Of a stretch of 39,518 nt of DNA, positions 3,320 to 4,248 are shown one piece after another; position 1 is the first letter of the stretch, and each line of letters begins with the position of its first letter. The stretch comes from a virus: UHGV virus genome UHGV-0040088. One strand, written 5' to 3'. The notes beneath the pieces were generated by a model. The model was not told where the DNA came from, did not search any database, and worked only from the letters and a program-made list of their open reading frames with translations. The translations under genes were made by a program, and so were the position numbers.

Positions 3320-3403
3320 ATGTTTACTTTCCTGCTAGGTGTATTTATCGGCGCGGCTGGAACTGCGATTGTAATGTTTTCCCCAAAATGGCCCGTAGGT
3401 TGA
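3320..3403 (+). CDS. micro-ORF 1 (27 aa, single hydrophobic helix)
   Basis: GAGGGTG SD; MFTFLLGVFIGAAGTAIVMFSPKWPVG. Confidence 0.4.
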   Translation: MFTFLLGVFIGAAGTAIVMFSPKWPVG

Positions 3404-3405
3404 TT

Positions 3406-3501
3406 GTGGATGAAAGCGCCATTGCCGGATTAATAGGCATATCTATATTTCTGGTTGGCTTTGTTATCGCCGTGCTGATAACAGTAAAGAGCAAATATTA
3501 G
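3406..3501 (+). CDS. micro-ORF 2 (31 aa, single hydrophobic helix, GTG start)
   Basis: VDESAIAGLIGISIFLVGFVIAVLITVKSKY; AGGT upstream. Confidence 0.3.
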   Translation: MDESAIAGLIGISIFLVGFVIAVLITVKSKY

Positions 3502-3514
3502 ATGGGGTGGCAAT

Positions 3515-3589
3515 ATGATTGACCCGCTAATTATCCTTTCTGCCTGCGTCGCTGTATGGCTGGCGATCATGATATTCATTGAAAGCTGA
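3515..3589 (+). CDS. micro-ORF 3 (24 aa, single hydrophobic helix)
   Basis: GGGGTGG SD; MIDPLIILSACVAVWLAIMIFIES. Confidence 0.4.
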   Translation: MIDPLIILSACVAVWLAIMIFIES

Positions 3590-3600
3590 AGGTATTCACC

Positions 3601-3675
3601 ATGAATATTTACGATCTCATCTGGTGGTCGTTGGTCGCCGTCATTATCTATTTCTGGTGGAAGAATGTTGTATAG
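3601..3675 (+). CDS. micro-ORF 4 (24 aa, single hydrophobic helix)
   Basis: GAAGG SD; MNIYDLIWWSLVAVIIYFWWKNVV. Confidence 0.4.
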   Translation: MNIYDLIWWSLVAVIIYFWWKNVV

Positions 3676-3683
3676 GTGACGGC

Positions 3684-3782
3684 ATGGATATATTCGAATT
3701 ACTGGCGATTATGTGCGGAATGATGTTAGGCACTGTCGCCATAATTATCATCATCGGCCTTGTTGTGGGTAGCATCAAATGA
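3684..3782 (+). CDS. micro-ORF 5 (32 aa, single hydrophobic helix)
   Basis: AGGTGA SD; MDIFELLAIMCGMMLGTVAIIIIIGLVVGSIK. Confidence 0.4.
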   Translation: MDIFELLAIMCGMMLGTVAIIIIIGLVVGSIK

Positions 3783-3859
3783 ACGCATACGAAATGCTAT
3801 TGCTGGTGGCTGTAGTTGTAGTCATTGCCGTAGATGTTTATCGGGAGTTTAAAAAATGA
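3779..3859 (+). CDS. micro-ORF 6 (26 aa, single hydrophobic helix)
   Basis: ATGA overlap with micro-ORF 5; MNAYEMLLLVAVVVVIAVDVYREFKK. Confidence 0.4.
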   Translation: MNAYEMLLLVAVVVVIAVDVYREFKK

Positions 3860-3924
3860 AATGGCTTGATTTCTTTTTCCTGATCGTTGCGATTGTTCTC
3901 ACCATGACCTCGCTGACTCAATAG
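3856..3924 (+). CDS. micro-ORF 7 (22 aa, single hydrophobic helix)
   Basis: ATGA overlap with micro-ORF 6; MKWLDFFFLIVAIVLTMTSLTQ. Confidence 0.4.
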   Translation: MKWLDFFFLIVAIVLTMTSLTQ

Positions 3925-3932
3925 GTGAGCGA

Positions 3933-4007
3933 ATGGATGTTATCGAAGCCGTATTATTCGTATGCATCGCCGCGTTAATTATCGTAGGGGTGATTATCAA
4001 TGTCTGA
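3933..4007 (+). CDS. micro-ORF 8 (24 aa, single hydrophobic helix)
   Basis: AGGTGAG SD; MDVIEAVLFVCIAALIIVGVIINV. Confidence 0.4.
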   Translation: MDVIEAVLFVCIAALIIVGVIINV

Positions 4008-4068
4008 CAGTGATTTCTTAATCATAGCGATAAGTTCGCTGTTAGTTGTTATTGTTTTCTTCGCGTAA
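4000..4068 (+). CDS. micro-ORF 9 (22 aa, single hydrophobic helix)
   Basis: Overlaps the stop of micro-ORF 8; MSDSDFLIIAISSLLVVIVFFA. Confidence 0.35.
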   Translation: MSDSDFLIIAISSLLVVIVFFA

Positions 4069-4082
4069 ACAAGGTGGACAAT

Positions 4083-4154
4083 GTGAGAGAGTCAGATTTT
4101 ATCTATATGGTTTTGGCTATCGTCCTTATTACCTGGGCGCTTTCTATTATGTGA
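4083..4154 (+). CDS. micro-ORF 10 (23 aa, single hydrophobic helix, GTG start)
   Basis: AAGGTGG SD; VRESDFIYMVLAIVLITWALSIM. Confidence 0.3.
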   Translation: MRESDFIYMVLAIVLITWALSIM

Positions 4155-4164
4155 AGGGTAAACA

Positions 4165-4248
4165 ATGAAAGAGCTATTCGACTGGTTGGAAGTATTAACA
4201 TACTGCGCAAGTTTTGTTGCTTGCGTATATATCATCAATAAATATTGA
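4165..4248 (+). CDS. micro-ORF 11 (27 aa, single hydrophobic helix)
   Basis: GAAGGG SD; MKELFDWLEVLTYCASFVACVYIINKY. Confidence 0.4.
   Translation: MKELFDWLEVLTYCASFVACVYIINKY

Follow-up and report, generated by a model that had tools for sequence, protein, structure and literature searches.

The DNA studied here, the virus genome UHGV-0040088 (39,518 nucleotides (nt), as a whole called the window), carries at positions 3320-4248 of its plus strand 11 consecutive open reading frames (ORFs) of 22-32 amino acids (aa) each, which fill the interval between a gene for an HExxH protein, a minimal zincin, and the small terminase gene terS. The presence of this array is confirmed, and we consider it probable, though far from certain, that it represents an operonic battery of independently translated, single-pass inner-membrane micro-proteins with an accessory, late, conflict-type role. 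We only infer the function of the peptides, which would be the binding of membrane proteins of the host or of rival phages.

Overall organization of the micro-ORF array

The original prediction had described 11 tiny ORFs, each with its own Shine-Dalgarno (SD) sequence or an ATGA or other overlap junction, between the HExxH and small terminase genes, and all of its coordinates were confirmed. Coding sequence accounts for 879 of the 929 nt of the region, and an SD core of at least 4 nt lies 3-11 nt 5' of the start codon in 10 of the 11 ORFs, the exception being micro-ORF F. The 12 junctions, those with both flanking genes included, all fall within −8 to +14 nt; specifically, the spacings are +2 (HExxH gene to A), +2 (A to B), +13 (B to C), +11 (C to D), +8 (D to E), −4 (E to F), −4 (F to G), +8 (G to H), −8 (H to I), +14 (I to J), +10 (J to L) and +10 nt (L to terS). 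In layout, the array corresponds to the tandem micro-ORFs with their own ribosome-binding sites (RBSs) that mark leaderless bacteriocin and phenol-soluble modulin alpha (PSM-alpha) operons.

All 11 ORFs lie on the plus strand. Micro-ORF A (3320-3403, 27 aa, MFTFLLGVFIGAAGTAIVMFSPKWPVG) opens with an ATG 2 nt past the HExxH gene stop, which is overlapped by the SD of A (GAGGGTGA, 3310-3317, plus strand). Micro-ORF B (3406-3501, 31 aa, (GTG)MDESAIAGLIGISIFLVGFVIAVLITVKSKY) begins 2 nt past the stop of A at a GTG that follows a good SD and is replaced by ATG in relatives (MDDSTIAG.., MDSYVIAG..); a longer reading of B from the ATG at 3388 was rejected, having no SD. Micro-ORFs C (3515-3589, 24 aa, MIDPLIILSACVAVWLAIMIFIES; SD GGGGTGG at 3504-3510), D (3601-3675, 24 aa, MNIYDLIWWSLVAVIIYFWWKNVV; SD GAAGGT) and E (3684-3782, 32 aa, MDIFELLAIMCGMMLGTVAIIIIIGLVVGSIK; SD AGGTGA 4 nt upstream) are separated by short gaps, while F (3779-3859, 26 aa, MNAYEMLLLVAVVVVIAVDVYREFKK) and G (3856-3924, 22 aa, MKWLDFFFLIVAIVLTMTSLTQ; SD GGGAG) each start in an ATGA overlap with the stop of the preceding ORF. 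They are followed by H (3933-4007, 24 aa, MDVIEAVLFVCIAALIIVGVIINV; SD AGGTGAG), by I (4000-4068, 22 aa, MSDSDFLIIAISSLLVVIVFFA; SD GGGGTGA), which overlaps H by 8 nt, and by J (4083-4154, 23 aa, (GTG)MRESDFIYMVLAIVLITWALSIM), whose SD AAGGTGG stands 5-6 nt 5' of the GTG at 4083, a position taken by ATG in relatives. The last member, L (4165-4248, 27 aa, MKELFDWLEVLTYCASFVACVYIINKY; SD GAAGGGT), stops 10 nt before the terS ATG.

The array exceeds chance expectation

Hydrophobic micro-ORFs were called with a detector that required 18-50 aa, an SD core and a 15-residue window with a mean Kyte-Doolittle hydropathy of at least 1.8. The region holds 10 such ORFs, compared with a mean of 0.68 and a maximum of 4 in 1000 dinucleotide-preserving shuffles; the same detector found none on the reverse strand of the region and never more than 2 per kb on one strand in the remainder of the window, in phage lambda or in two other loci. 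The shuffles thus fail to reproduce the array and bear out the earlier argument, drawn from dense packing and translational coupling, that these are not chance ORFs. The region is T-rich (34% T, 16% C), and T alone favours hydrophobic codons, but this composition by itself does not reproduce the ORFs.

Outside the long ORFs of the window, two lone SD-preceded micro-ORFs were also seen, both on the minus strand. Both encode hydrophobic peptides. One, of 33 aa (MDGKHVFALAFAIAAAIAVNVALFGGLYLLINP), lies at 38614-38715, in DNA that is 88-94% conserved in six mEp phages; the other encodes 24 aa (MCEHYVLEMIIIIIGLLCILLSTL) and lies at 19619-19693, where a DNA match occurs only in MagusPhagus, at 87%.

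Conservation and selection across related phages

Sequence identity assigns the window to the mEp021-like E. coli phages of the mEpimmI group: the region matches that of Escherichia phage MagusPhagus at 93% identity and those of mEp044, mEp010, mEp554, mEp021, mEp515 and mEp013 at 87-91%. The mEpimmI group comprises Nus-dependent, non-lambdoid temperate coliphages (PMC11893012). The region is found as a prophage in 35 of 5426 complete E. coli genomes, and 47 further loci come from IMG/VR. For comparison we assembled 53 related phages and prophages, which together with the window give 54 arrays. Syntenic arrays upstream of terS, anticipated by the original prediction, are indeed present, since all 53 relatives carry an array of the same kind. 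The distance from the HExxH stop to the terS start varies from 318 to 1154 bp, and within it lie 3-13 hydrophobic micro-ORFs (median 9), which belong to about 20 families and always keep the same relative order. Across these arrays, 485 of 490 ORFs start with ATG, 84% have an SD, and 94% of 436 junctions fall within −8 to +20 nt.

The coding nature of the ORFs was assessed by the ratio of nonsynonymous to synonymous polymorphism (pN/pS), in which each distinct substitution across a family was counted once. Over all families in the 54 arrays, the called frame gives a pN/pS of 0.265 and the shifted frames give 0.94 and 1.51, and substitutions distribute over the three codon positions as 177/102/351. 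The ORFs of the window, when pooled, give a value of 0.34 with a synonymous excess of binomial P = 2.6e-27; taken singly, the 10 ORFs with enough orthologues range from 0.21 to 0.47 (B 0.37, C 0.21, D 0.40, E 0.24, F 0.24, G 0.25, H 0.26, I 0.40, J 0.43 and L 0.47), and A was left out because it has too few orthologues of the same allele. The same method returned 0.43 for terS and 0.14 for the zincin gene, and the micro-ORF value lies between the two, which indicates that the micro-ORFs are constrained like their bona fide neighbours. Judged from these substitution patterns, the array ORFs are real coding genes under purifying selection, and this applies to the called frames only.

Individual ORFs differ in how widely they are kept. 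Intact copies were found in 40/53 other loci for B, 50/53 for C, 51/53 for F, 49/53 for G and 52/53 for L, the last with a diverged allele (MKYLSSWFGVSIYFATLIECLYIVNKF) in mEp021; D is intact in 33 loci, E in 22, H in 34, I in 33 and J in 15. Four other loci share the exact allele of A, and about 22 more have alleles that diverge from it, MFTFLLGVFVGIAAAVILIYGH among them. Reading frames broken by indels in relatives had been named beforehand as evidence that would speak against the array, and such damage proved rare, so that this attempt at refutation failed: 383 of 390 DNA-level orthologues (70-100% nucleotide identity, 53 loci) keep start codon, frame and stop. The seven exceptions comprise D in two loci (ATG to ATA in one, a frameshift in the other), I in four related loci, where the start is lost (ATG to ACG), and E in one locus, where the stop is lost; the altered copies lie in loci L032, L009, L021/L024/L026/L028 and L027. 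These broken orthologues show that single cassettes are dispensable.

The same data bear on whether the peptides are inert, with the ORFs serving only to keep ribosomes on the transcript (through relief of Rho polarity or coupling to terS) or having arisen de novo in a T-rich spacer. A T-rich region does yield hydrophobic codons, a general point for enterobacterial intergenic small ORFs (smORFs; PMC11188072), the last ORF ends immediately before terS, and copies are lost or broken in 7 of 390 cases. However, the amino acids themselves are conserved (pN/pS 0.27-0.34, third-position changes dominant, called frames only), the level of constraint falls between those of terS and the zincin gene, and the flanks of the peptides show a systematic charge asymmetry. 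One ORF-sized cassette, moreover, appears to have moved into an unrelated lytic phage, and dinucleotide-preserving shuffles fail to yield the ORFs. We therefore regard inert peptides as improbable.

It is still harder to credit that the ORFs are incidental to a DNA-level element beside terS, such as a pac or cos site, or are remnants of a decayed gene for a multi-pass membrane protein. The region does adjoin the terminase genes on their upstream side, where the cos site of lambda lies. Nevertheless, its length (318-1154 bp) varies by insertion and deletion of whole ORFs, its conservation is codon-periodic and not the uniform constraint of a DNA element, and it contains no tandem or notable inverted repeats. 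Against a fragmented gene, in turn, every piece has its own SD and start, the stops are conserved in 53 loci, and no peptide matches any larger membrane protein family. Both versions were rejected on length variation, codon periodicity and the conserved SDs, starts and stops.

A more divergent relative was found on a 51.7-kb ENA metagenome contig (L103, array at 4028-4585), whose HExxH protein is 62-65% identical to that of the window. Its peptides C, F and L are 100% identical to those of the window, while D, G, H and I differ by 2-4 residues. The array of this contig shows stronger conservation than the gene that precedes it, possibly as a result of mosaic recombination.

The peptides fall outside described families

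No known family accommodates the peptides. In PHROGs, the best matches (E values of 0.0016 and 0.0066) were to families of unknown function, and for the majority of the peptides nothing was matched; searches of NCBIfam and Pfam gave nothing below E 0.03, and all hits were far under the curated cut-offs. The suggestion that the array might be an unrecognised micro-protein family thus agrees with the lack of any Pfam-A, NCBIfam or PHROG family match. Standard annotation likewise passes over the region. RefSeq/PGAP annotates nothing in the corresponding 1079-bp interval of E. coli GF66.2 (L105, 719-1797), nor does the mEp021 record in its interval, and records based on PHANOTATE annotate a subset of the array, partly as wrong longer ORFs; for example, a 67-aa ORF with a TTG start runs across D in another frame into E (mEp010_80, L004 2280-2483; L001 2371-2574), and such deposited annotations overlook several genuine micro-ORFs. 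When 10 exact peptide sequences were looked up among about 15 billion predicted proteins, one was present.

In the literature on phage micro-proteins and small membrane proteins, we found no description of such an array. Enterobacterial intergenic smORFs have been reported as mostly hydrophobic and under purifying selection (Fesenko et al., 'The Cryptic Bacterial Microproteome', PMC11188072), in a study that contains 0 mentions of prophages, terminase or tandem arrays. The class of small single-pass membrane proteins is accordingly known; an operonic cassette array with fixed order, ORF-sized recombination and cross-family mobility appears to be undescribed.

Size and hydrophobicity also raise the question of type I toxin-like or other membrane-damaging peptides, as exemplified by Hok, Ldr, Ibs, TisB, ShoB and DinQ. 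The peptides of the array resemble such toxins in being small, hydrophobic and, by prediction, membrane-spanning, and in E. coli the Ibs and Ldr loci also occur as tandem repeats. The tight packing of −8 to +14 nt, by contrast, excludes individual promoters, long 5' untranslated regions and antisense RNA genes. Consistently, a promoter and terminator scan of the region returned 4 promoter-like sites versus 7.7 in shuffles, that is, no enrichment and no evidence of internal or antisense promoters. Furthermore, no toxin family model was matched in Pfam or NCBIfam, and an Rfam search of both strands found no antitoxin RNA and nothing else near a gathering score. On these four lines of evidence (packing, promoters, Rfam and families) a toxin function was rejected, and we hold it to be very improbable.

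Architecture and predicted topology of the peptides

The peptides of the window contain an uncharged hydrophobic core of 13-26 residues, with a grand average of hydropathy (GRAVY) of 0.8-2.6, and the earlier statement that each ORF encodes a single hydrophobic helix held. Their C-tails span 0-8 residues and their net charge is at or below zero. A common architecture is evident: the N-tail is short and acidic, a hydrophobic helix of about 18 residues follows, and the C-tail is short and basic or absent. Specifically, among 194 unique peptides acidic residues outnumber basic ones by 284 to 59 in the N flanks, basic residues outnumber acidic ones by 201 to 81 in the C flanks, and the first acidic residue stands at position 2-6 in 16 of 21 family representatives. 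Given the positive-inside rule, acidic N flanks and basic C flanks predict a single-pass topology with the N-terminus out and the C-terminus in. Small-xxx-small motifs number 26 in the cores versus 16.8 ± 3.2 in shuffled cores, a count in which related representatives are included, and this enrichment is only suggestive of helix packing. Peptide C was additionally considered as a lipoprotein, since its LSAC resembles a lipobox; this was rejected, the Cys being residue 11 and preceded by an acidic n-region without a basic residue.

Gain and loss of ORF-sized cassettes

When the window was compared with arrays of other sizes, the blocks of similarity broke at ORF boundaries (A+5, D+4, E+91-95, J+68-71), so that ORFs have been gained and lost whole. 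The motif GAGGnTGAtTATG, common to several junctions, unites an SD with the stop codon of one gene and the start codon of the gene that follows.

Smith-Waterman comparison against shuffles gave z scores of 10.3 for F-N, 8.1 for J-G', 6.6 for G-G', 5.8 for G-J and 4.5 for D-F, over a background mean of 1.1 that arises because shuffling destroys the common layout of a polar N-terminus and a hydrophobic core. On this scoring D is likely a paralogue of F. In addition, E and H share 78% identity over 27 nt that cover the SD and the first five codons, and in a D-E deletion the starts of the paralogues D and F have become joined; a deletion that joins paralogous starts suggests unequal recombination between paralogous 5' ends. 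The original prediction had denied simple duplication on the ground that the sequences differ. This stands as far as recent duplication is concerned, Tandem Repeats Finder having returned nothing on the region, but not for older events, as several diverged paralogues exist (G/J and D/F within the window, F/N and J/G' across relatives).

Searching with the concatenated peptides by tblastn, we found no match outside the phage group except for family K, a 29-aa family (MIASILTF.GG.A.GFI.CLF...) that is absent from the window and present in 12 related arrays (for example L029 2033-2122 and L046 2176-2265). Family K matched many records of Vequintavirus (rV5/FV3-like, strictly lytic phages). In phage FV3 (L102, NC_019517), it is a lone unannotated ORF at 2501-2590 (MIASILTFMGGVAVGFIICLFIVIMSMRG) in a 95-nt gap at ORF129/ORF130; the FV3 and L046 copies are about 96% identical in nucleotides, and homology ends beyond the ORF and its SD/stop/start junctions. 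Such a pattern looks like the recent passage of one ORF-sized segment between lytic myoviruses and temperate siphoviruses, and a lone family K gene in Vequintavirus indicates that cassettes are individually mobile. A tblastn search of plasmids gave a single match, in a 137.6-kb record, through the same family K segment, and a degenerate DNA pattern for the N-terminus of the F family found in IMG/VR the same phage group only, apart from 3 chance matches inside larger genes.

Genomic setting and the lysis genes

The array belongs to a long plus-strand block that runs from holin, endolysin, an HNH-AP2 insert and Rz with an embedded Rz1 through the HExxH gene and the array to terS, terL and portal. 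Its upstream boundary is the zincin gene (HExxH...E; 2766-3317, plus strand, 183 aa) and its downstream boundary is terS (4259-4744, plus strand), which is of Sf6 type (Pfam PF20901, E 3e-37). The holin gene (769-969, plus strand, 66 aa) encodes a small class II holin with two transmembrane domains (TMDs), and the adjoining endolysin gene (970-1461, plus strand) encodes a Gly/Ala-rich N-terminal hydrophobic segment (AAAGGTLAIASVLLVLV); by likeness to P1 Lyz and R21, we take the endolysin to be of the signal-anchor-release (SAR) type. The lysis cassette (769-1461, 2168-2362) thus looks like a pinholin/SAR-endolysin system. Nested in Rz is an ORF for an Rz1-type lipoprotein with the lipobox LSGC.

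An ORF with HNH_3 and AP2 endonuclease domains (1451-1972) is inserted between the endolysin and Rz genes. The same insert occurs in L103 and is absent from MagusPhagus and mEp021; in mEp013, an HNH gene lies instead between the HExxH gene and the array (L007 2088-2573). HNH genes near the junction of lysis and packaging genes look like mobile homing-endonuclease insertions.

This setting bears on the main alternative to a conflict role, namely that the array provides lysis-timing accessories, which would tune pinholin triggering or release of the SAR endolysin as antiholin-like buffers or co-depolarisers. The array starts 890 nt downstream of Rz, with the zincin gene between, in the same strand block as the lysis cassette, and a two-TMD class II holin is combined there with a SAR-type segment. 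Systems of this kind fire on collapse of the membrane potential, so that small membrane peptides could plausibly shift their timing, and a 47-aa family in relatives has marginal matches to holin PHROGs (E 0.04). On the other side, no significant match to a holin, antiholin or spanin family was obtained in PHROGs, Pfam or NCBIfam, and the peptides do not have the architecture of holins, which have at least 1-3 TMDs, usually measure 60-150 aa and typically possess a highly charged C-terminal domain. The phage already encodes a complete set of holin, endolysin and Rz/Rz1; a repertoire of 3-13 genes among otherwise similar phages would be odd for a timing device; and in Vequintavirus, family K lies away from lysis genes. 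Lysis tuning is rather unlikely in our judgement, although more likely than the other alternatives.

A proposed role in phage conflict

On the conflict-type explanation that we favour, the array would be transcribed late, together with the lysis and packaging genes, and translated through coupling or re-initiation. Peptides this short would leave the ribosome while still largely within its tunnel, before co-translational targeting, so their insertion would have to be post-translational; it might proceed through YidC or spontaneously, as for Pf3 coat protein, and would leave the N-terminus on the periplasmic and the C-terminus on the cytoplasmic side. In the membrane, each peptide may bind, by helix-helix contacts, some larger membrane protein that the host or a competing phage encodes and, during the lytic cycle, could block the entry of superinfecting DNA or membrane-embedded defence effectors. 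The variable repertoire, the decay of single copies and a family shared with lytic phages favour such an accessory, conflict-type role. The cautious interpretation first given, of membrane-targeting peptides or an unrecognised micro-protein family, is supported; superinfection exclusion, modulation of host transporters and holin-like action, the functions named with it, stand as candidates that sequence analysis does not separate.

Several observations count against this proposal. The T-rich composition of the array by itself favours hydrophobic codons, and for membrane-spanning segments the hydrophobic cores of F (13 residues) and D (15 residues) are short. In its definition of the mEpimmI group, PMC11893012 leaves this region, small ORFs, transmembrane proteins and terminase unmentioned. 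A scan of GTDB species-representative genomes with terL returned only 2 relatives, of which the one from Providencia (terL 68% identical) has no array upstream of terS, from which it follows that the array is not generally needed for packaging or lysis in this phage lineage and is not traceable beyond E. coli phages. Finally, no promoter was predicted for expression from the prophage, and for this reason superinfection exclusion of the classical lysogen type is not favoured.

A bolder form of the idea, which we offer as a tentative possibility, is a toolkit of mobile 'micro-moron' cassettes in which each helix would disable one membrane-embedded defence effector or one entry component of a rival. 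A cassette would then be a gene of about 70-100 nt with its own start, whose 3' end supplies the SD and stop for the next gene; unequal recombination at the starts of paralogous genes would create new cassettes, and their exchange would extend even across the divide between temperate and lytic phages. If true, this would amount to an intramembrane effector of a new class, active in counter-defence or exclusion and with the organisation of an anti-defence locus.

Whichever role applies, standard resources miss the array peptides, and the phage group offers a tractable system, being reportedly prevalent in the human gut and including mEp021, mEp010 and others that grow on E. coli K-12. The array could be used to study phage membrane micro-proteins, the insertion of very short peptides, and the birth, duplication and movement of micro-genes. 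Should the peptides be specific intramembrane inhibitors, they could also serve as templates for the design of transmembrane-helix binders.

Comparison with known systems

Close parallels are the bacterial small membrane proteins AcrZ, KdpF, MgtS, CydX, MgrB and YohP, which, like the array peptides, have at most 50 aa and one transmembrane helix and are often missed by annotation. Where their action is known, regulators of this kind bind a larger membrane protein within the bilayer. They are solitary chromosomal genes, however, whereas the array unites 11 unrelated or distantly paralogous genes in one phage operon, and no sequence similarity was detected between the two sets. The smORFs of PMC11188072 and the catalogues of small phage genes represent the same general class, as unannotated ORFs of 15-70 codons, but not as tandem operonic arrays.

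Type I toxins (Ibs/Sib, Ldr/Rdl, Hok/Sok) resemble the array in being hydrophobic peptides of 18-50 aa, with some loci in tandem; each toxin gene has its own promoter and antisense RNA, while the array genes have neither and are translationally coupled. The genetic layout is shared with psm-alpha1-4 of S. aureus, aureocin A70 and garvicin KS, in which ORFs of 20-35 codons likewise follow one another head to tail with their own RBSs. The peptides of these systems are amphipathic or cationic, are handled by a dedicated ABC exporter and belong to Gram-positive bacteria. Those of the array are instead uniformly hydrophobic with acidic N-tails, and the neighbouring genes encode a zincin and TerS, not a transporter.

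Among phage proteins, T4 Imm, P22 SieA, HK97 gp15 and T4 RI are inner-membrane proteins that act on DNA entry, the holin or a host membrane enzyme. Lysis peptides of single-stranded RNA phages, such as LysM, have one transmembrane helix in 30-40 aa and inhibit a specific host membrane protein. Exclusion and lysis proteins are mostly of 80-200 aa, encoded by single genes and in several cases expressed from the prophage, in contrast to a late-block battery of 3-13 genes, and PHROG and Pfam searches showed no homology of Imm, SieA or HK97 gp15 to the array. The predicted topology is shared with the YidC substrates Pf3 coat and M13 procoat, which combine an acidic translocated N-tail, one transmembrane helix and a basic C-tail in an N-out/C-in orientation. 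These are filamentous virion proteins of 44-50 aa in mature form, without homology to the array, and no such structural role would be expected in a tailed phage. Compared with all these systems, what appears to be new here is that up to 13 different single-helix proteins are encoded in one phage operon, where they are under purifying selection, reshuffled as cassettes and shared with an unrelated lytic phage.

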